From the UHGV virus genome UHGV-1530050: a stretch of 30,949 bases of DNA. One strand, 5' to 3'. Every line of letters starts with the position of its first letter. The first letter of the stretch is position 1. Made by a program: the position numbers and the translations under genes. The DNA comes from a virus. Under the pieces are notes generated by a model. The model was not told the origin of the DNA. It did not search any database and saw only the letters and a program-made list of their open reading frames with translations. This document shows, piece after piece, positions 9,889-26,471 of the stretch.

Positions 9889-10236
9889 TTAACTCAGTGA
9901 AACTGTGGTTGAAACTGACGCACCGGTATCGGTACGCATCCCGGTAATATCGACATACATTTCGCCAGCGTCGCCGGTCTCAAAGCTGATGGCGGTAAGC
10001 CTGATGCGCGGCTCCCACTTCTGGATAGCCGAATAGCACGCCACCATAATTTGTAGCCTGAGCGCCGGGTTTTGCGGCATATCAATCAGCGCCGACAGAA
10101 GCGAGCCATATTCACGGCGCATCACCCGCGAGCCGACCGGCGTCAGCAGTATGTCGCGCATGCTCTGGCTGATGTGCTCAGTGTCGCTGATGCCGAGGCC
10201 GGTATTTCGGTTCATACCCTGATAGCGCGCCGTCAT
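9889..10236 (-). CDS. W: Baseplate wedge protein W (gp25-like)
   Basis: 115 aa; located between V and J. Confidence 0.9.
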   Translation of the reverse strand: MTARYQGMNRNTGLGISDTEHISQSMRDILLTPVGSRVMRREYGSLLSALIDMPQNPALRLQIMVACYSAIQKWEPRIRLTAISFETGDAGEMYVDITGMRTDTGASVSTTVSLS

Positions 10237-10874
10237 TTAGTGCCCTCCGTCCAGCTCCCGCCCCGTTGCACGCCACCGTGACCGTGGTCATCAACCTGCA
10301 CACCGTTTGATTTCAACGTGCCGCCAGTATGTTCGATGTTTCCCCGCATGGTGCCGCCTTTCTGCACCTCAAGCGTCGCCGTCGTCAGTTTGTTGGTGCA
10401 GACCACCTCCGGGCTGTCGAGGGTGATGCGGGTTTCTGCTTTCACAAGCACCACCGGCACAGTGGCGGTGATGGACTCCGATGCCGTCACATCAGCAGTC
10501 TTAATGCCACTGACCGTCAGCGCACCGGTTTCCGGCTCATACTCCATAACCGCGCCATCAGGGAACACCACATGCCACGCATCCGCCGAGGCAGACGGGG
10601 CGGGGTTATCGTCTGAGAAAATCCCCGGCAGCACGAAAGCGGTATCAAGCTCGCCACCAATCGCCAGCAGCAGTACCTGCTCACCGACCGAGGGAGCCCA
10701 CCATGTACGCGAACGACCGGCGCGGGTAGTAAGCCAGTTCAGCCATGTAGTCTGGATCCCGCCGCTTTGTACGCGGCACAGCCCCTGCACGGTATCGACC
10801 TCAGTCACCACACCTGAGCGGATGAGATTGCGAATTGCACGAGCTAGTTCTTGAATGCTGTTTAGTGTGTTCAT
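10233..10874 (-). CDS. V: Baseplate spike/assembly protein V
   Basis: 213 aa; P2 gpV-like; first gene of the V-W-J-I-H-G operon. Confidence 0.9.
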   Translation of the reverse strand: MNTLNSIQELARAIRNLIRSGVVTEVDTVQGLCRVQSGGIQTTWLNWLTTRAGRSRTWWAPSVGEQVLLLAIGGELDTAFVLPGIFSDDNPAPSASADAWHVVFPDGAVMEYEPETGALTVSGIKTADVTASESITATVPVVLVKAETRITLDSPEVVCTNKLTTATLEVQKGGTMRGNIEHTGGTLKSNGVQVDDHGHGGVQRGGSWTEGTK

Positions 10875-11062: not shown

Positions 11063-11926
11063 ATGGAAGAATCTAAAAGAATACGCCAATTAAAAGAAAA
11101 CCTCATAAAGGAACTACCTTTCTTTCCAAATGAAAAATCAATACGCACTGAACTAGAAAATCAAAGTTTAAATGGGGTTTTAATCGCTTACCTCCACTGG
11201 AAAACAAGAATTGTGCCGACCCGCAGAAGGAGAGTTCATATATATCCAGAGGTAACGAGCGATAAAAGATGGAAAGAACTAAAACTTGGTATTCATGGGT
11301 TACTGGATAAGGTCAGAAAAGGTGAAGACTTATACCCTCATCTTTCATTGCGCGCACATAAGTATGGCTACACTCCTGTTGAAAGAATTCGTAATGGAGA
11401 TGCTGATTCATGGGAAGACAAAGATCAGTTATTAAATACGAAAGGTTTTCATCATTTTCATTTGAGCATGAATATTCAAAGTACAGGCTTGGCCGAAAGG
11501 ACAAATAATGTTCTTTTTGCCTTCGTTTCTCGCGACCAGTTTCGTGCTGTGGGGATATTTGATCATAGTGTATTTGATAAACCCGATAGTTTAAATGGCA
11601 TGACTGAGGAACGTGAAAGAATGTGGACCCTGCATGAAAAATACATCACATTCGGAATGAAAGCTGGCACAGTGTATATAAACAATCTGATAACAGCATC
11701 CGGGCATCCTGTAAATCTTATCATGCTCGCCGATCGTTATGCTGCAATCATCCGAGAATATGACCAGAAGGCGGAAGACAGAATTTTTGTAAATGAGCTT
11801 TATGCTCAAAGCCCACTTCCCTCTCCAGAAAGGTTTAAATTTGAGTGGCGCATAGAGGGTTTGGATCTTGTTCTTTTTGATAAAAAAAACAGAGTGGCCT
11901 TTAACGTCTACAAAGCTCACATTTAA
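11063..11926 (+). CDS. Hypothetical protein; AT-rich cargo gene in the S-V (P2 orf30) slot, antisense to the late genes
   Basis: 287 aa ORF with AGGA RBS 7 nt upstream; markedly lower GC than the flanking S and V genes; no motif I recognise. Confidence 0.6.
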   Translation: MEESKRIRQLKENLIKELPFFPNEKSIRTELENQSLNGVLIAYLHWKTRIVPTRRRRVHIYPEVTSDKRWKELKLGIHGLLDKVRKGEDLYPHLSLRAHKYGYTPVERIRNGDADSWEDKDQLLNTKGFHHFHLSMNIQSTGLAERTNNVLFAFVSRDQFRAVGIFDHSVFDKPDSLNGMTEERERMWTLHEKYITFGMKAGTVYINNLITASGHPVNLIMLADRYAAIIREYDQKAEDRIFVNELYAQSPLPSPERFKFEWRIEGLDLVLFDKKNRVAFNVYKAHI

Positions 11927-11982: not shown

Positions 11983-12435
11983 TTATCTTAGGAAAAGATA
12001 CTGTAAGACCACTTCCTCCATCAATGTCACTTCATCTTGGTTAAATCCGAGCAACGGGCGCGCCTCGTACTGCACATCGCGGCTGTTGCGGTTTGGCCGG
12101 TCTTTGAGGCCATACTGATGCACCCGCGCCATGCGTTGCACCCTGCCGGTAAACTCCACCACAGCCGAACTGTCGCTGCCTTTGGCTTTCATAAAACGAC
12201 TGGTGCGCAGTCTGGTGAACATCTCGCGCTTAATGCGGCCTTTCTTGCTCCGCACAGGCTGGCGCTTTCGCGCGGCATACGGGGTGCCGTCGGGTGCCTG
12301 CTGCCGCTTAATTCGCTGTTGCTGGCTGGCGCGCAGCTTTTTCGCAATCTCAGCCGCCATTTGACGACGCGCCGCCGGTGACAGGCTGGCAATCAGACCG
12401 GCAAGGCGCTCCTGCAGCACGGTTAACTCACTCAT
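11983..12435 (-). CDS. S: Tail completion protein S
   Basis: 150 aa; P2 gpS-like; overlaps the R stop. Confidence 0.85.
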   Translation of the reverse strand: MSELTVLQERLAGLIASLSPAARRQMAAEIAKKLRASQQQRIKRQQAPDGTPYAARKRQPVRSKKGRIKREMFTRLRTSRFMKAKGSDSSAVVEFTGRVQRMARVHQYGLKDRPNRNSRDVQYEARPLLGFNQDEVTLMEEVVLQYLFLR

Positions 12436-17921: not shown

Positions 17922-19691
17922 ATGACCATTTCCACCGATACAACCTTGTTGCATGACCCGCGACGACAGGCATCGCTGCTTTACTGGCAGGGCTTTTCCG
18001 TGCCACAGATTGCCGAAATGCTGCAGGTCAAGCGCCCGACCGTGCAGAGCTGGAAGCAGCGCGACGGCTGGGACGGCATCGCACCGATTTCCCGCGTTGA
18101 AAGCAGCCTTGAGGCGCGCCTGATTCAGCTCATCGCGAAACCACAGAAGACGGGCGGTGATTTCAAAGAGATTGACCTGCTCGGGCGGCAGATTGAGCGG
18201 CTGGCGCGCGTCAACCGCTACAGCCAGACCGGCAACGAAGCCGACCTTAACCCCAACGTCGCCAACCGCAACAAAGGGGAGCGCAAAAAGCCGAAAAAGA
18301 ATTTTTTCAGCGACGAGGCTATCGAGAAACTGGAGGAATTATTTTTCGACCAGTCTTTCGAGTACCAGTTGCAGTGGTACCGCGCAGGACTGGAGCACCG
18401 TATTCGTGACATTCTCAAATCCCGCCAGATTGGTGCGACGTTCTATTTCTCCCGCGAGGCGCTGCTGCGCGTGCTCAAAACAGGCCATAACCAGATATTT
18501 TTATCAGCCAGTAAAACGCAGGCTTACGTGTTTCGCGAATACATCATCCAGTTTGCACGACTGGTCGACGTTGACTTGACCGGCGACCCGATTGTCATCG
18601 GTAACAACGGCGCAAAACTGATTTTTCTCGGTACCAATTCCAACACCGCGCAGAGCCATAACGGCGACCTGTATGTCGATGAAATATTCTGGATCCCGAA
18701 CTTTCAGAAACTGCGCAAAGTCGCCTCGGGCATGGCTTCGCAGAAGCACCTGCGCTCGACCTACTTTTCGACACCCTCAACACTGGCGCACGGGGCTTAC
18801 CCCTTCTGGTCTGGTGAGCTGTTCAACAAGGGGCGCGCCAGTGCCGCTGACCGCATCGAAATCGACATCAGTCACCGCGCGCTCGCCGGTGGTCAGCTCT
18901 GCGACGATGGCCAGTGGCGGCAGATTGTCACCATTGAGGATGCCCTTGCCGGGGGCTGCACCCTGTTCGACCTCGACCAGCTCAAACGCGAAAACAGTGA
19001 TGAGGATTTTAAGAACCTGTTTATGTGCGAGTTTGTCGACGATAAAGCGTCGGTATTCCCGTTCGAGGAGCTGCAGCGCTGCATGGTCGACGTGATGGAA
19101 GAATGGGAGGACTTTGCCCCGTTCGCCGACCATCCGTTCGGCTCGCGCCCGGTCTGGATTGGCTACGACCCGTCACACACCGGCGACAGCGCCGGGTGCG
19201 TTGTGCTCGCGCCGCCGGTGGTCTCGGGTGGCAAGTTCCGCATGCTTGAGCGCCACCAGTGGAAAGGAATGGATTTTGCCGCTCAGGCCGAGGGCATCCG
19301 CAAGCTGACCGAGAAATACAACGTCGAATACATCGGCATTGACGCGACCGGCCTCGGTCTCGGCGTATTCCAGTTGGTGCGCTCATTCTACCCGGCGGCA
19401 CGCGGCATCCGTTACACACCTGAAATGAAAACCGCGATGGTACTCAAGGCGAAAGACACCATTCGCCGCGGCTGTCTGGAGTACGACGCCGGGGCGACCG
19501 ACGTCACGCAGTCGTTTATGTCCATCCGCAAAACCATGACCAGCAGCGGGCGCAGCGCCACTTACGAGGCCAGCCGCACCGAGGAAGCCAGTCACGCTGA
19601 TATCGCATGGGCGACCATGCACGCCCTGTTAAACGAACCGCTTTCTGCCGGTAGCGGCATGCAGCCTAAATCTATTCTGGAGTTCAACTAA
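17922..19691 (+). CDS. P: Terminase ATPase (large) subunit P
   Basis: 589 aa; P2 gpP-like; TAATG overlap with Q. Confidence 0.9.
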   Translation: MTISTDTTLLHDPRRQASLLYWQGFSVPQIAEMLQVKRPTVQSWKQRDGWDGIAPISRVESSLEARLIQLIAKPQKTGGDFKEIDLLGRQIERLARVNRYSQTGNEADLNPNVANRNKGERKKPKKNFFSDEAIEKLEELFFDQSFEYQLQWYRAGLEHRIRDILKSRQIGATFYFSREALLRVLKTGHNQIFLSASKTQAYVFREYIIQFARLVDVDLTGDPIVIGNNGAKLIFLGTNSNTAQSHNGDLYVDEIFWIPNFQKLRKVASGMASQKHLRSTYFSTPSTLAHGAYPFWSGELFNKGRASAADRIEIDISHRALAGGQLCDDGQWRQIVTIEDALAGGCTLFDLDQLKRENSDEDFKNLFMCEFVDDKASVFPFEELQRCMVDVMEEWEDFAPFADHPFGSRPVWIGYDPSHTGDSAGCVVLAPPVVSGGKFRMLERHQWKGMDFAAQAEGIRKLTEKYNVEYIGIDATGLGLGVFQLVRSFYPAARGIRYTPEMKTAMVLKAKDTIRRGCLEYDAGATDVTQSFMSIRKTMTSSGRSATYEASRTEEASHADIAWATMHALLNEPLSAGSGMQPKSILEFN

Positions 19692-20737
19692 TGGGTAAGC
19701 AAAAATCCCGCAAAGCCGCTGCGCAGAAGGCCAGCAAGCCACAACAACTGACCGCCAGCGCACCGCCAAAAACAACAGCTTTTACCTTCGGCGAGCCGGT
19801 GCCAGTGCTCGATAAGCGCGATATTCTGGATTACGTCGAGTGCATCAGTAACGGCAAATGGTACGAGCCGCCGGTCAGCTTCTCCGGGCTGGCAAAGAGC
19901 CTGCGCTCTGCAGTGCATCACAGCTCACCGATTTACGTTAAACGCAACGTGCTCGCTAGCACCTACATTCCGCACCCGCTGCTGTCCCGTCAGGATTTCA
20001 GCCGCTTTGCGCTCGACTATCTGGTATTTGGCAACGCCTTTCTTGAGCAGCGCCACAGCGTCACCGGCCAGTTAATCAAACTGCTGGCCTCGCCAGCCAA
20101 ATACACCCGACGCGGAGTCGACGATTCGATTTTCTGGTTTGTGGAAAACTTCACCCAGCCGCACGAGTTCGCGCCTGATACCGTGTTTCACCTGCTGGAG
20201 CCCGACATTAATCAGGAGATTTACGGCCTGCCCGAATATCTCAGCGCGCTAAATTCCGCCTGGCTGAATGAATCCGCGACGCTGTTCCGCCGCAAGTATT
20301 ATCAGAACGGCGCGCACGCGGGTTACATCATGTATGTGACTGACCCGGCGCAGAGCGCGACCGACGTCGAATCGCTGCGCGAGGCGATGCGCAACTCAAA
20401 AGGGCTCGGCAACTTTAAGAACCTGTTTTTCTACGCTCCCGGCGGAAAACCGGACGGCATCAAAATCGTGCCACTGAGCGAGGTCGCCACAAAGGATGAC
20501 TTTTTCAACATCAAGAAGGCCAGTGCCGCCGATCTGATGGACGCGCACCGCGTACCGTTCCAGCTCATGGGCGGCAAGCCCGAGAATATCGGTTCACTCG
20601 GTGATGTTGAGAAGGTGGCAAAGGTATTTGTGCGCAACGAGCTGTCGCCGCTACAGGACAGGTTCAGGGAGGTAAATGACTGGCTCGGCATGGAGGTCAT
20701 CAGATTCAAAGAGTACACCCTCGACAACCCAGAATAA
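19691..20737 (+). CDS. Q: Portal (capsid vertex) protein Q
   Basis: 348 aa; P2 gpQ-like sequence and position. Confidence 0.9.
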   Translation: MGKQKSRKAAAQKASKPQQLTASAPPKTTAFTFGEPVPVLDKRDILDYVECISNGKWYEPPVSFSGLAKSLRSAVHHSSPIYVKRNVLASTYIPHPLLSRQDFSRFALDYLVFGNAFLEQRHSVTGQLIKLLASPAKYTRRGVDDSIFWFVENFTQPHEFAPDTVFHLLEPDINQEIYGLPEYLSALNSAWLNESATLFRRKYYQNGAHAGYIMYVTDPAQSATDVESLREAMRNSKGLGNFKNLFFYAPGGKPDGIKIVPLSEVATKDDFFNIKKASAADLMDAHRVPFQLMGGKPENIGSLGDVEKVAKVFVRNELSPLQDRFREVNDWLGMEVIRFKEYTLDNPE

Positions 20738-20814
20738 CTTAGGCCGCCACAATCTCTGCGCTCATTATTGAAGATGCAATCTGCGAAAGCTATAGTGCAT
20801 CGAATATCAAAACA

Positions 20815-21819
20815 ATGGGCGCGGAGATTAATATTTTGGAAACTGATTTTAAAATAACCCTCGAAGGTTTCGCTACTGAGCAAGAAGCAAATAATATCGG
20901 TAATTTCACACTAGAAGCTATCCGAGCTTTAACAAAAAATCTCAATCTTGATATCTCCAAATTAAAATGCGTGATTGTTTCCTATAACTTCAGTGAAGCT
21001 CTTCAAAAGGTAACATCCTCTTACCAACACAAATCCCCTAGTTCATTTACCAATAGCAAACAGGGCGCAGCCGTCGGGCAGTTAGTAACAAAAATTGGCA
21101 ATGATGGGCTATGTGAAGAATATACCCTTGTGCTATCGATTGATTTTTTTGTTGAGCTTTTCAATGATGCTGGCTTCTTAAAACTGAAAGAAGAAGGATA
21201 CCTCGCAGTCATCCATCGCATTCACCATGAATTAGTGCACGTACATGAAAAAAACTTACTAACATGCTTAGCCCAAAACTTTACAGTCAACGAGTATGGT
21301 AGCGCGCTTCTTATCTCAGCCACGCGTGCATGGTCTGAATATCTCGCTAATTACATGTCTTCGGGGTCTGCCCCTCAAGAAACTATCGATTTATTTTTAG
21401 AGAATCTTGACACTGTTGTAAATGAAGTATCTGACGAAATTGAAAAACTCATCTGGGGTTATAAGTACGGTAATATTTCTCTGAATGACATGTATCTCGA
21501 AGTAAAAAAACGTATCAGGCTAATCATCAACTCTTATGCTTATGCGATGGGTTATGTCCATTCTCTAAACATCAATATTAAAGAATACGATCCAAAGCTA
21601 TCCCTTACACTATCCAACTCAAAGATAAGATATCAATTATCAGAATTAGGCATTGCTTTTCAGAATCTTTATGGGAAGTTTAATGACCAGCACATTACAG
21701 GTTTTGGTGATTTTCGGGAGATAACAATAATCATTGATGAAATATTCAAGCAGTTTGGGCTTGTTTTAGAGTGTCCCGATTGGTCTGGCGACGGTGAACT
21801 CTACATACATGTAAATTAG
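20815..21819 (+). CDS. Hypothetical protein with HExxH (HELVH) motif; AT-rich cargo gene between portal Q and cos
   Basis: 334 aa ORF with much lower GC than the backbone; ...VIHRIHHELVHVHEKN... contains a candidate zinc-metallopeptidase HExxH motif; RBS weak. Confidence 0.55.
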   Translation: MGAEINILETDFKITLEGFATEQEANNIGNFTLEAIRALTKNLNLDISKLKCVIVSYNFSEALQKVTSSYQHKSPSSFTNSKQGAAVGQLVTKIGNDGLCEEYTLVLSIDFFVELFNDAGFLKLKEEGYLAVIHRIHHELVHVHEKNLLTCLAQNFTVNEYGSALLISATRAWSEYLANYMSSGSAPQETIDLFLENLDTVVNEVSDEIEKLIWGYKYGNISLNDMYLEVKKRIRLIINSYAYAMGYVHSLNINIKEYDPKLSLTLSNSKIRYQLSELGIAFQNLYGKFNDQHITGFGDFREITIIIDEIFKQFGLVLECPDWSGDGELYIHVN

Positions 21820-22038
21820 TTTAATCATAGTAGAAACATAATTAGCAGTTTGAATCCTGCCACTCCTGTAAAGCCGCTGCTCCTGGTGGCTTTTCCATGC
21901 ACACCACCATCACGCATCAGATGTGTCTCACGCGCACGAACACACCTGACCACCAACGAACCAGCAGCGACCACGACAGCGCCATCACGATGCGCTCAGA
22001 AGATAATTTTTATTATTACGCATCACTGCTGGCGCGCA

Positions 22039-22057
22039 ATGCTTTCCCCGCCACGCC
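22039..22057 (-). other. cos site (19-nt cohesive end, 186-type)
   Basis: The reverse complement of 22039..22057 reads GGCGTGGCGGGGAAAGCAT, matching the 19-nt cohesive end of phage 186 as I recall it (P2 differs at 2 positions); lies between Q and A as expected. Confidence 0.6.
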
Positions 22058-22150
22058 TGCCCGCTTTATGGGGCGGTTTTAATGCAGTTGCATGACCACT
22101 CTGGATCCCCGCCAGCTCTTGCGGCGCACGTACAAAACGGGTAACCCCGG

Positions 22151-22185
22151 CGCATGCAGAACCATGCACCTGTTGCATGCACAGC
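22151..22185. repeat. Three direct copies of CATGCA(C/G) spaced 11-13 bp apart
   Basis: cgCATGCAgaacCATGCAcctgttgCATGCAcag; about 95-130 bp from cos and 110-140 bp upstream of the 22294 gene. Confidence 0.4.
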
Positions 22186-22293
22186 TTATTTATTGATAAA
22201 TCACCTTAAATTTACAAAAATTACGGACATTGGTTCTTTCCAAACATGATAGCCTCTCGATAATTATCGAGCCTATTTTGAACGGAGAAAGAT

Positions 22294-23235
22294 ATGCAAG
22301 GTGAAGTTGACGAACAGCAACCCAATGAGATTATGTCGGAGTTTGGATACTATCCAGTAGAAGTTAACATTGAGACTGAACAATTTTCTTTGCTTACTTT
22401 ACCTGGTCTCAATGAGAAAGTGGAGCGTGTTAACAATGATAAAAACGTTGTGAAAGGTTGGATATACCCTGGAAACCAAGATGTATATAACCTTAATGGT
22501 GGTATATCCACAATGCCTTATAGTCACCGAGTATTCAGTATGCCCAAAACGCACACACTAAAATTAAAAAATACATCCTCGTTAGAAACTCTCAACTTTA
22601 TTGTGTGGTGCCTTTCTTTTTTCAAGGGAATAAGATTGACAACCACTGACGCTGGTTTTTTAGATGCAACCACTATCAAGCCCACTAAGTTAACCGACTT
22701 TATTCTCGTTGGATGCTCTGAAAAAGAAGTCATAGAACTGGCTCTTAATTATATAAATGGCAAACATAAGGATGCGCACTCCCCCAAAAGAATTGCGGCA
22801 GTGGTGCATGCACTATTCTTATCTCAAAACCCACAATACCTTTCTTTTGAAAAATTCCAGTACCTTTACATGGCACTTGATGGGTGCTTTGCTTTGTCGT
22901 GGGCTGAGCATGACAAGGCTCCTGATAAAAAACCGCCAAATCATTACAAGCGATTAAAGTGGATGTGCAAAATTTATGGGTTATCAATCCCCACATGGGT
23001 GTCAGGTAAAAAAAACATTTCTGGCATCCGCAATGATAATTTTCATGAGGCTATTTTTTTTGGTCAACCGCTTGGTTTCTCAAGTGTTAATAACAGTCAA
23101 TATGGTAACGATATATTGCTGCAAATGCAGGCACTGGTATGTCGCCTATTAGCGGCAATACTGTCGGTTAATGATTGCAGTTATCTCAAATCTTCGGTCA
23201 ACTCACGAGATTACCATTCATTAAAAATAAATTAA
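22294..23235 (+). CDS. Hypothetical protein; AT-rich cargo gene in the cos-proximal Q/A slot (P2 tin/old position)
   Basis: 313 aa ORF with a strong GGAG RBS 8 nt upstream; low GC; convergent with replication gene A as P2 old/tin are. Confidence 0.6.
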   Translation: MQGEVDEQQPNEIMSEFGYYPVEVNIETEQFSLLTLPGLNEKVERVNNDKNVVKGWIYPGNQDVYNLNGGISTMPYSHRVFSMPKTHTLKLKNTSSLETLNFIVWCLSFFKGIRLTTTDAGFLDATTIKPTKLTDFILVGCSEKEVIELALNYINGKHKDAHSPKRIAAVVHALFLSQNPQYLSFEKFQYLYMALDGCFALSWAEHDKAPDKKPPNHYKRLKWMCKIYGLSIPTWVSGKKNISGIRNDNFHEAIFFGQPLGFSSVNNSQYGNDILLQMQALVCRLLAAILSVNDCSYLKSSVNSRDYHSLKIN

Positions 23236-23268
23236 TGCTAACGCCTCGCGGTGCTCGTTGTTCAACCC

Positions 23269-23303
23269 CCGCCAGTACTGAAAGCGAGTTTCAGAACCGG
23301 CGG
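23269..23303 (+). terminator. Candidate terminator hairpin downstream of the 22294 gene
   Basis: Nested inverted repeats ccgcc ... ctgaaa-gcgag-tttcag ... ggcgg, 35 nt after the stop, followed by cgtttgct. Confidence 0.3.
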
Positions 23304-23309
23304 CGTTTG

Positions 23310-23519
23310 CTATCGTCGACGTGGTGGTGGTGCGTATTGTTTCGACCTGCTGATGCTATCCAGCTTGCCGTAATTATCCCTGACTATTTCGGCACACCCG
23401 ACCAGCTCTGCGGGTGTCAAATTCTCATTGACCATTATCTGCTGCAAACGATGAACGATGGCCATCAGTTTGATGCTTTTAGTTTTGTGCTGCGGTATTT
23501 CACCTGGTAGTCGATGCAT
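23310..23519 (-). CDS. Small hypothetical ORF (69 aa)
   Basis: ORF only; uncertain start; located downstream of the dinI-like gene. Confidence 0.3.
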   Translation of the reverse strand: MHRLPGEIPQHKTKSIKLMAIVHRLQQIMVNENLTPAELVGCAEIVRDNYGKLDSISRSKQYAPPPRRR

Positions 23520-23718
23520 ATTATCACCCTCAATGAATTTTAATCAGTGCCGTCAAAACGCCACTATAAAACCATCTCAGGTCATGCCTCATTAATCATG
23601 GGCGTGTCATCAATAGCACATTGAGAAATTTTGAAAGGCAGGACTTAAGCCTCGTGGGCTAGTTACTCAACCCCGCCGACGCAAAAAGCTAGTTTTTGCG
23701 CCAGCACGGTTATTATGT

Positions 23719-23949
23719 TTAACGCCAGCTATCGTCTTCCCAAATCTCTTGTAATATGCTGCCTAATGTTTCTCTGTCCGCCTCTTTATCGAATCCGATA
23801 GCCTCTACACCAGTCATTGACCCTTTCTTAACGTTAACTTTTGTTGCAGGAAAAACGCATTGTACTCGATGTGTTATTTCATTCTGAAAAGCATCAATGA
23901 TCTGTTGCCCTAATTTTTGCTCTTTATCCAACGTGATATTGATTCTCAT
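23719..23949 (-). CDS. DinI-like damage-inducible protein domain (possible Tum-like antirepressor C-terminal part)
   Basis: 76 aa; MRINITLDK...RVQCVFPA...ILQEIWEDDSW resembles the DinI family; in the same frame as the upstream 60-aa ORF, separated by a single TAG. Confidence 0.7.
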   Translation of the reverse strand: MRINITLDKEQKLGQQIIDAFQNEITHRVQCVFPATKVNVKKGSMTGVEAIGFDKEADRETLGSILQEIWEDDSWR

Positions 23950-23952
23950 AAT

Positions 23953-24135
23953 CTAATCAGCCTTATAAAAATTATCATCTTCGGTTTCGTTATTTTCGCT
24001 GTTTGCTAGGTCTGCAATGAGAGTGAGCGCGAGCTTTAAGTCTGATGGCTTGCAGTTTGCAATCAGAGATACCTCGGCAATAAATTGCACACAAGCCCAC
24101 TTTTGCTGCGTTCGGCTGAAATGTTCGCCAACCAT
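23953..24135 (-). CDS. Small SOS-regulated ORF (60 aa), possible N-terminal part of a Tum-like antirepressor
   Basis: GGGAGGG RBS; near-consensus LexA box 20-40 bp upstream; in frame with the dinI-like ORF across one amber codon. Confidence 0.5.
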   Translation of the reverse strand: MVGEHFSRTQQKWACVQFIAEVSLIANCKPSDLKLALTLIADLANSENNETEDDNFYKAD

Positions 24136-24154
24136 GAAATCCCTCCCATAGGGT

Positions 24155-24174
24155 TACTGTATATTTATACAGTA
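24155..24174 (-). promoter_or_regulatory. LexA box (SOS operator)
   Basis: TACTGTATATTTATACAGTA is a CTGT-N8-ACAG palindrome matching the E. coli LexA consensus TACTGTATATATATACAGTA at 19/20; overlaps a candidate TTGCCA -35 on the - strand. Confidence 0.8.
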
Positions 24175-24248
24175 GCACGTATTGGCAAAAGATGGGAAGA
24201 AAAAAAACGAATAGAGCGATTGCTGTATGTGCATGATATGGATATGAA

Positions 24249-26471
24249 TTACTCATGTATTGGTTTTGATGCTTCAGCCATCGCCGCAACACGATTAAGG
24301 ATTTTCCGAGCTTTAGCCTCATGCGATGGTGCTGCGGAAAATATTTCTCCTTTGGCCGTTCCGCGTAGCCATTTACCATCAAAACAACTTTTACCACCGG
24401 CCATCAGGTGCAGGGCTTCGCCCCGGCTGATATTAATGCCGGTTGTCAGATGTATTTCGTCGATAGTTTTAGCTATAGCTGCGTTTTGCTCATCCGTTCC
24501 GTGGATGAATTTTCGCCGTGCTGCTGGCTTTTGCTTCCTGAGTCGGTTGGTCAATTCTCGTCTTTCACGCCGACTCAGTGGTTTTGTTAAATCCAGTATC
24601 GGTGGATCGCTTTCGCTTCCCGTACAGTTATTGACAGAACTCCGAGGGACGGCTTTGCCGTCCTGAAGGTCAACGGCCAAATCAACAGCACGCTTCGGAA
24701 CAATCTTCCACTGAGTGAGCCGGGTTAAAATCGGACTCCCTGCACCTATGGAGGAATCGTAGACTCCCTTAATACATACCGTTTCCTCACCGTACTGATT
24801 AAGCTCGGTACGCGGTTCATACAGTGTGCGCACCTGTAAATCATCGCGACGGACAAACGGCCCACCCTGAGCATTAACATAACCAGCCCAGTCACCAGCG
24901 TCGGCGGCATCATGGACGGCGGCAAACTCAACGCTCAGTCCGTGCGCGGTTTCGGTATCAGCGAGGCGACGCAACTCACGGTAAACCGTCACCGGCGCAC
25001 CACCGATAAACTGAAACTGACGGATGTGCCAGCGCGCAGCCCATGCTGAAACGGCGGGGGCTGTCTCTTTCAGTAGCTCACCGCTTTCATCATCGGTTTC
25101 ACCATCGAGAGCATAACCGTCGATATTTTTTGAAATGTATTTAGCAACATAGCCGGTTGCGCTGCCTTTCTCCGGGTCAATGGACTCGGCGTGGAAACGT
25201 GCTTTTTTGGATTTATCGCTTTTCAGTTCGTGGCGGTCTTCTTTCCATGCGTATTTACGGACGATGGAGCGAACATATTCAACATCTTCCGGCAGCATGA
25301 ACATCAGCATGTGCCAGTGTGGAGTGCCGTCGTGATGAGGCTCGGCGACACGAATACCGAAAATACGGACATCTTCCCGATGTAGTTTGGCACGGATACG
25401 CGCCCAGATACCGGTTAGATAGTTTTGCGTGTCAGCCGGGCTGGCACCGCTCCATTTGCTGTTACGGTAACCGGCTTTAGTCGTGGCGTGATATTTTGAC
25501 GGCGCGGTTAGAGTGTAAAACTCACCGACATAACCGAGCTCATTACAGATGTTTTCAAACCCACGAATGCGGGTCATGAGCTCACAGCGGCGAATCGCAG
25601 GGTTAGCAACTGAGCCATCATATTTTTCAATCAGGCTGATACGGTTGCCGTCTTCGTCTTCGAGATCCAGACCTTTGAGAAATTCACGAGTGCGGCGCTT
25701 TTGTTCACGCCAGTCAGTCACGCAGTTTTTACTCGCGTAAGTGTTTTTTTTCTTACTGACGTTGCCGACTGCAATTTGCAGGTGTTCGCGCCACGTAGCT
25801 GCAACACGGCGCAAACGACCGCGCCACCACCCATCGTTAAACATTTTGGCGATAGCCGGTGCGATTTCATCCGCACCGACATATTTTTTTTCAACCCGCT
25901 CCCAATGTGGTGGGATAACGTTAAATTGGAGGGAAATAAAGCCAGCACGAATATACCAGGTGTACAGCGTTTTAAGCTCGCCGAATCCGTGGTCATTAAT
26001 GTTGGCAAGTTCACCACGAATGAAATTAGCAATATCAGCGGCCAACAGGTCAACATCAGCGCGCGACATATCCGGGAGACGGTTATATCGGGCGACCATA
26101 TTAACCATGCGTGACGACAGATATTGCATTTGCTGAGTATCAAAATGACTTCCAAAAACAGCGGTTGATACCTTGCTGTTGATACCAGCGCATTCGTATT
26201 TTTTTGCGACCAGTTCAAGACGCGGCAATGCCTTTTTGCAGAAGTTGATTAAAAATGCATTGGCTCGTTGACTACCCTGATTTTGCTCCAGCACCGCAGC
26301 AGTGCGATAAACATCTAACCGCACGCAGTCGGGCTGGAGAGAAAGCACCTTTTTTGCATGCAGCAAAGCCGCGAACATACGGTCGCGGCGATGCTGTTGC
26401 TCATAAGTAAGGTATGGGCTGGAGATTGCCGACCGTGGGACGTTCCACGGATAAGCGAATTGAACAGCCAA
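24249..26471 (-). CDS. A: Replication initiation protein A (rolling-circle endonuclease)
   Basis: 740 aa; P2/186 gpA-like (HHDGTPHWHMLMF region); last gene of the early operon. Confidence 0.9.
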   Translation of the reverse strand: MAVQFAYPWNVPRSAISSPYLTYEQQHRRDRMFAALLHAKKVLSLQPDCVRLDVYRTAAVLEQNQGSQRANAFLINFCKKALPRLELVAKKYECAGINSKVSTAVFGSHFDTQQMQYLSSRMVNMVARYNRLPDMSRADVDLLAADIANFIRGELANINDHGFGELKTLYTWYIRAGFISLQFNVIPPHWERVEKKYVGADEIAPAIAKMFNDGWWRGRLRRVAATWREHLQIAVGNVSKKKNTYASKNCVTDWREQKRRTREFLKGLDLEDEDGNRISLIEKYDGSVANPAIRRCELMTRIRGFENICNELGYVGEFYTLTAPSKYHATTKAGYRNSKWSGASPADTQNYLTGIWARIRAKLHREDVRIFGIRVAEPHHDGTPHWHMLMFMLPEDVEYVRSIVRKYAWKEDRHELKSDKSKKARFHAESIDPEKGSATGYVAKYISKNIDGYALDGETDDESGELLKETAPAVSAWAARWHIRQFQFIGGAPVTVYRELRRLADTETAHGLSVEFAAVHDAADAGDWAGYVNAQGGPFVRRDDLQVRTLYEPRTELNQYGEETVCIKGVYDSSIGAGSPILTRLTQWKIVPKRAVDLAVDLQDGKAVPRSSVNNCTGSESDPPILDLTKPLSRRERRELTNRLRKQKPAARRKFIHGTDEQNAAIAKTIDEIHLTTGINISRGEALHLMAGGKSCFDGKWLRGTAKGEIFSAAPSHEAKARKILNRVAAMAEASKPIHE

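Follow-up and report, generated by a model that had tools for sequence, protein, structure and literature searches.

A probable single-gene abortive-infection HEPN ribonuclease in the tin/old hotspot of a P2/186-like Escherichia coli prophage

ORF313, encoded next to cos in an Escherichia coli prophage, combines a beta-rich N-terminal domain with a HEPN-like domain and would represent a new architecture of a well-known defence type. We think it likely that the protein is a stand-alone, prophage-borne HEPN RNase acting by abortive infection, with its N-terminal domain as the sensor. The overall model follows the analogy with ApeA, HepS and DARNA, while the fold, the motif, the autonomy of the gene and its genomic context are its observed part.

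The window, meaning the whole stretch of 30,949 nt analysed here, is a P2/186-like (Peduoviridae) E. coli prophage. Phage vB_EcoM-613R3 and 17 complete E. coli genomes matched positions 20700-24300 with 99.6% identity. One genome, NZ_CP100947.1 (E. coli ET490), carried an ISL3-like ISKox3 transposase insertion in an otherwise identical Q-to-A region. The genes and sites around ORF313 were the following:

17922-19691, plus strand: terminase gene P
19691-20737, plus strand: portal gene Q
20815-21819, plus strand: ORF334
22039-22057, unstranded: cos cohesive end, by match to the phage 186 record
22294-23235, plus strand: ORF313, ATG start, 313 aa plus stop (RefSeq CDS WP_001622299.1)
23310-23519, minus strand: ORF69
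23719-23949, minus strand: DinI-like gene (Pfam DinI, E 1.7e-17)
23953-24135, minus strand: Tum-like gene, 60 aa, "UV induction of prophage" (phrog_1993)
24249-26471, minus strand: gpA

The cos site was placed at 22039-22057 because base 1 of phage 186, its annotated cos, aligns to 22057. The order P, Q, ORF334, cos, ORF313 and then minus-strand genes up to gpA puts ORF313 in the cos-proximal slot of the Q-A (tin/old) hotspot, with its variable cargo between Q/cos and A. ORF313 is the first gene past cos, where P2 has tin and old. It is convergent with the A-tum-dinI transcription and co-oriented with ORF334, from which it is separated by cos in virion DNA. The preliminary description had proposed this slot and these orientations, and the gene order agrees with it. 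Table S5A of Rousset 2022 lists the same arrangement (WP_001622301 + WP_001622299 + ...).

Other parts of the window were also recorded. The DinI-like and Tum-like genes lie downstream of gpA (23719-24135, minus strand), indicating that the backbone here is 186/PSP3-like (SOS-inducible) and not P2-like. ORF69, convergent with ORF313, belongs to phrog_11386 (function unknown). About 50 of its codons are kept (76% aa identity) 3' of ORF313 in P2-EC67-type loci, where the RefSeq counterpart is a 51-aa "meiotically up-regulated 80 protein". ORF334 gave no Pfam or PADLOC match. Its HxxHHExxHxHE block (H134, H137, H138-E139-x-x-H142, H144, E145) was invariant in 14 homologues, down to 42% identity, and resembles the HExxH motif of zinc metallopeptidases. 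ORF334 homologues formed 78 clusters from Enterobacterales, Shewanella and Psychromonas, and were very common in Salmonella. A third AT-rich cargo gene (11063-11926, plus strand, 287 aa, local GC 37-38%) sits in the P2 orf30 slot, between tail genes at 10233-10874 and 11983-12435, both on the minus strand. The encoded protein had no Pfam match, and over residues 23-168 it was recognised by the PADLOC models of PD-T4-7, a validated defence system (E 4.8e-9).

ORF313 is a genuine gene, far beyond a chance ORF, as judged from its dN/dS, its RefSeq CDS and its large homologue family. The dN/dS against four E. coli orthologues was 0.13-0.33, signifying purifying selection. Homologues, nearly all of ~300 aa, formed 398 clusters at 90% identity and 657 clusters at 50% identity, the latter spanning Alpha-, Beta- and Gammaproteobacteria. 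The RBS, GGAG at 22284-22287 (plus strand), lies six bases 5' of the ATG and is also kept in four other P2-like loci. The G + C content was 38.5% (GC3 36.6%), compared with 57.6% for P, 56.2% for Q and 52% for the whole window. An ORF of 313 aa with an RBS and low GC, as described earlier, was thus confirmed. Its hotspot position, together with the defence-island neighbours and the DefensePredictor score described below, supports ORF313 being a horizontally acquired cargo gene of the tin/old hotspot.

Two flanking regions were considered as potential signals:

22058..22283, plus strand: leader between cos and ORF313, 91% mean column identity over five loci
23236..23309, unstranded: hairpin region separating the convergent genes ORF313 and ORF69 (folding of the minus strand at -31.9 kcal/mol, z = -2.1)

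The leader presumably holds ORF313's own promoter. Two sigma-70-like matches were found in it, at 22193-22221 and 22237-22264, at about chance level for the promoter scan. A perfect 16-bp palindrome, CTCGATAATTATCGAG, is located at 22256-22271, 13 bases 5' of the RBS. A -10-like GATAAT shares bases with it and a T-run comes next; four other P2-like loci keep it in part, with a single mismatch in an arm. Its role may be that of an operator, a leader hairpin or an insulator terminator. The hairpin in the leader had z = -2.5, with RNA folds here at or near chance. A terminator-like hairpin was found at 22057-22076, and the region 23236..23309 is a weak candidate for a bidirectional terminator. 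The promoter scans, terminator scans and RNA folds around ORF313 were all at or near chance, and were not counted as evidence.

The ORF313 protein was divided as follows:

22330..22713, plus strand: N-terminal beta-rich domain, residues ~13-140, no recognisable fold
22720..23193, plus strand: C-terminal all-helical HEPN-like domain, residues ~143-300
23029..23049, plus strand: HEPN motif R246-N-D-N-F-H251-E252 (Rx4H), translation RNDNFHE

The canonical HEPN signature is Rx4-6H, usually with a polar residue right after the R, and ORF313 has both. In an alignment of 28 homologues R246-N247-x3-H251-E252 was invariant. Among 86 members, with identities down to 24%, H251 was conserved in 100%, R246 in 99%, E252 in 94% and N247 in 93%. 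The AlphaFold2 model built from the alignment (pLDDT 79.9, pTM 0.82) was beta-rich in its N-terminal half and all-helical in its C-terminal half, the latter predicted to form the all-alpha up-and-down helical bundle of the HEPN superfamily. The fold matches, with their scores, were the following:

Sacsin HEPN 7.8, Csm6 7.4, AbiA 7.4, AF0298 7.3, HepT toxins 6.9-7.2, AbiV 5.6, HepS 5.1

The motif lies within the predicted helix 242-256, which, together with the following loop, is the least confident part of the model (pLDDT 45-60). Faint Pfam matches among the 86 members were 15 in all, two of them to HEPN families, and one UniRef homologue entry was labelled "Apea-like HEPN". Together, these results make it very likely that the C-terminal half of ORF313 is a HEPN domain. 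The earlier statement that no nuclease or other motif is recognisable was wrong, since both the invariant RNxxxHE motif and the HEPN fold are present.

Remote homology and structure prediction had been proposed earlier as a check. Fold comparison pointed to HEPN; profile and Foldseek searches gave nothing significant. No significant match to Pfam, NCBIfam or PADLOC profiles was found for ORF313 or up to 86 relatives, and none at E <= 0.001 when the ORF313 model was compared by Foldseek with the PDB. In PHROGs, ORF313 falls in phrog_5937, with matches only to families of "unknown function". With PADLOC v2.0.0, ORF313 and five of seven divergent members had no family at E <= 1, and the sole match among the seven was PDC-M01B, at chance level (E 0.041). 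The Pfam domains AAA, SMC and TOPRIM were absent from ORF313, in contrast to GajA, a neighbour of one homologue, which shows them. No Pfam domain was found in any of the longer family members, which were searched for domain fusions.

The N-terminal domain was as conserved as the HEPN half, with mean pairwise identities of 35.6 and 35.2%, respectively. The best-conserved block of the family lies in this domain, at residues 101-140 (WCLSFFxGxRLT..GFLDAT..LxDF), and its conserved polar residues are R79, T86, H87, R114 and D135. We infer that it is a sensor or regulatory domain. Residues 1-56 (22294-22461) had weak profile matches to the bacterial RyR-domain structures 3nrt, 6ug5 and 6uag, with a common Y-x-P...helix...GW-x-Y pattern. 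The E values were 0.14-0.4 per single domain, and 0.003 was reached only for a two-copy chimera. The only other match of the family profiles to PDB sequences, over 40 residues at the N-terminus of ribonucleotide reductase R2 (E 0.008), was spurious or marginal. Both the R2 match and the assignment of the first ~55 residues to a RyR domain were treated as unproven, because Pfam scans support neither; Pfam RyR matched none of the 86 members.

The earliest record of the family is ORF313 of P2-EC67 (AM157369.1, CAJ43160.1), in the variable "TO region" of P2-like coliphages. The P2-EC67 gene shares 88% nucleotide and 90% amino-acid identity with ours, as well as its length and position. The two loci differ toward gpA, where P2-EC67 has ORF226 and ORF73/DUF2158 in place of ORF69, DinI and Tum. 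A 74%-identical orthologue, of the GF161-type locus, is the unannotated system 11 of Rousset 2022 (Table S5B), with 218 occurrences, placing the family, at rank 11, among the commonest unannotated occupants of the P2 hotspot. System 11 had no domain annotation and was not among the cloned systems; both its record and that of P2-EC67 ORF313 read hypothetical protein, with no domain. The "Putative HEPN" pFR103 (E. coli S88), ineffective in the test by Rousset et al., is a different protein. Of the systems that they tested from this hotspot, about 3 of 8 were validated. DefensePredictor, whose strict cut-off is 4, scored the 74%-identical orthologue (WP_001161722.1) at 9.68 (mean log-odds) and labelled it "Predicted novel defense gene", without remote homologues among the defence genes already known. 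The gene was absent from those DefensePredictor tables of cloned candidates that were consulted. Literature searches by accession, PHROG id or "P2-EC67" returned nothing on it, and no published HEPN annotation or phage test was found, Brenes and Laub 2025 lying outside the scope of the search. As far as we have seen, the family was thus already catalogued and predicted to be defensive, and the HEPN reading is apparently new.

Several known systems resemble ORF313. ApeA (Gao et al. 2020; Pfam HEPN_Apea PF18739) also occurs in P4 and P2 hotspots. A ligand bound in the pocket that separates its N-terminal and HEPN regions switches it on, and it cuts tRNAs at their anticodon loops. Like ORF313, it is one protein with a C-terminal HEPN effector, and its N-terminal region, without known homology, is packed against the HEPN. 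Unlike ORF313, with its 313 aa and beta-rich N-domain, ApeA has ~580 aa, is almost all-helical and is organised as N, Mid and split-HEPN regions. ORF313 does not belong to the ApeA family: it had no Pfam or PADLOC match, and only one of 86 members matched HEPN_Apea, at E 0.15. HepS, from the Gifsy-1 prophage of Salmonella (PDB 9oik), is a 218-aa tetramer triggered by the siphovirus tail-tip protein J. It differs from ORF313 in being essentially HEPN only, with no counterpart of the N-domain and no sequence similarity. DARNA / PD-T7-3, AbiV, AbiF/AbiD, PrrC/RloC and RnlA/LsoA also have a HEPN Rx4-6H effector that is inactive until infection, and none of them was detected by sequence in ORF313. 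DARNA is switched on by SSB-bound ssDNA and cleaves tRNAs. Unlike ORF313, DARNA begins with the HEPN and ends in a Pds5-like domain, and the N-domain of PrrC is an ATPase. P2 tin and old share with ORF313 the cos-gpA slot, the orientation relative to A and the character of AT-rich lysogenic-conversion cargo, but the proteins are unrelated. Both tin and old exclude other phages (Christie and Calendar 2016). Old is an ABC-ATPase plus TOPRIM nuclease. ORF313 has neither an ABC ATPase nor a TOPRIM domain and is not a member of the OLD family.

When one genome per species was scanned, 24 loci with an ORF313 homologue were obtained. These included the Betaproteobacteria Achromobacter, Comamonas, Thauera and Verticiella, and the Alphaproteobacteria Shinella, Ponticaulis and Allosphingosinicella. 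The same protein was present in two different Providencia islands, in one after HsdM/S/R (type I R-M) and GmrSD, and in the other beside an integrase, flanked by DUF3800 and by AbiH plus a TIR protein. In P. aeruginosa the homologue lay ~3 kb from Gabija (GajA/GajB), and in Stenotrophomonas within a TniB / Mu-transposase element. Aeromonas was an exception, with the homologue among housekeeping genes. For a qualitative view of the surroundings, with no matched control, we collected 131 crude ORFs located up to 4.5 kb from the homologue in 17 non-redundant non-P2 loci. Strong PADLOC matches among them were Drt5, Hhe, a CBASS phospholipase effector and JAB, MkoA, mad3, DpdC, PDC-S37, PDC-S49 and PDC-M06B, and the Pfam matches were to integrases, resolvases, conjugation genes, and phage capsid and portal genes. 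Qualitatively, this points clearly to the non-P2 relatives being part of mobile elements and defence islands. One common block of ORFs surrounded the homologue in Xanthomonas, Achromobacter, Albidiferax and Thauera (four genera, two proteobacterial classes), with 418, 115 and 174 aa upstream and ~425, 610-650 and 461 aa downstream. The arrangement points to a shared mobile element, which would move the homologue between distant hosts. The earlier suggestion that ORF313 may be an uncharacterised defence gene is supported by the hotspot site, the defence-island neighbours and the DefensePredictor log-odds of 9.7.

ORF313 is an autonomous single-gene module, as indicated by its independent distribution, its changing companions and the lack of a conserved neighbour. 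Among 5426 complete E. coli genomes, 98 (1.8%) had a relative of it, always on the chromosome, and 26 had ORF334; both genes were present in 17, and nine had ORF334 with other cargo in the tin/old slot. The preliminary description had suggested a two-gene system, contiguous across cos in the prophage. Both genes are co-oriented and AT-rich (38.5% GC for ORF313 and 37.6% for ORF334), and they are adjacent as prophage genes in the 17 genomes and in phage vB_EcoM-613R3. However, ORF313 and ORF334 are distributed independently of each other, and the proposed co-occurrence check does not support the pairing. In three other P2-like locus types ORF313 comes directly after Q and cos, with nothing in the Q-cos gap, and its companions toward gpA are a hypothetical gene and an ImmA/IrrE peptidase in one type, and a 51-aa ORF, ORF226 and DUF2158 in the remaining types. 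ORF334 relatives were absent by tblastn from seven non-P2 loci with an ORF313 homologue. Furthermore, the 474 bp between the genes contain cos and the terminator-like hairpin at 22057-22076. An obligate ORF313-ORF334 system is already refuted by these data, and we regard any two-gene system of this pair as very improbable. Even less room is left for a phage replication or packaging accessory gene that would be cos-adjacent for that reason, a reading that is scarcely credible. In its favour there is only the position beside cos. Against it, P2-like prophages are common, yet just 1.8% of E. coli genomes have ORF313; its base composition is foreign, and unrelated genes take the slot in other P2-like phages. 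Homologues also occur without nearby phage genes, in islands or transposon-like elements of Pseudomonas, Acinetobacter, Stenotrophomonas, Xanthomonas, Thauera, Shinella and others. A conserved accessory gene, an identification named earlier as one that would speak against a defence role, is excluded by this low presence, the variable companions and the non-phage contexts.

The remaining alternatives accept the HEPN-like fold. The domain might be non-catalytic, with a nucleotide- or ligand-binding or regulatory role, making the protein a regulator or a counter-defence factor, for example. HEPN domains without catalysis generally lack the Rx4-6H motif, whereas the R, N, H and E of the ORF313 motif are 93-100% conserved across Proteobacteria; this conservation argues for catalysis, and we consider a non-catalytic domain improbable. 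It is likewise unlikely that ORF313 is a toxin-like HEPN RNase serving the maintenance of the prophage or element by addiction or post-segregational killing, or the competition between P2-like phages and P4 satellites, rather than general defence. HEPN domains are often toxins in toxin-antitoxin systems, and HepT was among the fold matches. The family is carried by prophages and by transposon-like and integrative elements, and hotspot systems are able to act against closely related P2-like phages (Rousset et al.). However, we searched across loci for a conserved partner or antitoxin and found neither an MNT nucleotidyltransferase nor a small ORF that was conserved beside it. An adjacent nucleotidyltransferase (HEPN-MNT, HepT/MntA antitoxin) was absent from the window and from the loci inspected elsewhere, and no neighbour of the homologue was conserved among Pseudomonas, Aeromonas, Acinetobacter, Stenotrophomonas and Providencia. 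Of the three P2 locus types compared, only two had ORF69 together with ORF313; ORF69 was missing from the GF161-type locus and from every non-P2 locus. Moreover, defence systems were more often neighbours of the ORF313 family than plasmid or prophage stability genes.

For the abortive-infection RNase, which we favour, the following course of events can be proposed. In the lysogen ORF313 would be expressed constitutively from its own promoter, with the HEPN effector held in an autoinhibited state. By analogy with other HEPN RNases, the protein probably forms a dimer or a higher oligomer with a composite active site. The tightly packed N-domain would detect an infection cue and release the C-terminal HEPN, a putative metal-independent endoribonuclease acting through R246 and H251. 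The freed RNase may then cleave RNAs of the host, the anticodon loops of tRNAs being the likeliest target, in the manner of ApeA, HepS, DARNA and PrrC. Translation would halt and the superinfecting phage could not replicate. Regarding the trigger, we lean slightly, as a speculation, towards a conserved ligand of nucleic-acid or nucleotide type over a fast-evolving phage protein, because the N-domain is as conserved as the effector. A bolder and more tentative idea, which we hold to be possible but doubtful, is that ORF313 is the founder of a distinct, widespread family of single-protein immune RNases. Its compact N-domain, for which there is no structural relative, would be a new sensor of a conserved small-molecule or nucleic-acid cue, as opposed to a variable phage protein, and an allosteric switch of the HEPN. 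If true, ORF313 would be a minimal RNase (~35 kDa) gated by a ligand, and might find use in biotechnology.

Another HEPN gene in the P2 hotspot will not surprise specialists, yet the family is abundant and broadly distributed. The view that the AT-rich genes on either side of cos work as a pair is corrected by its distribution. Despite the spread throughout Proteobacteria, no functional annotation from Pfam, NCBIfam, PADLOC or PHROG covers the family, and the HEPN assignment, with R246 and H251, makes a "hypothetical protein" directly testable. If confirmed, ORF313 would add a new and very compact sensor-plus-HEPN architecture to the abortive-infection systems targeting tRNA or other RNA, and several hundred more loci would become recognisable by defence-annotation tools.
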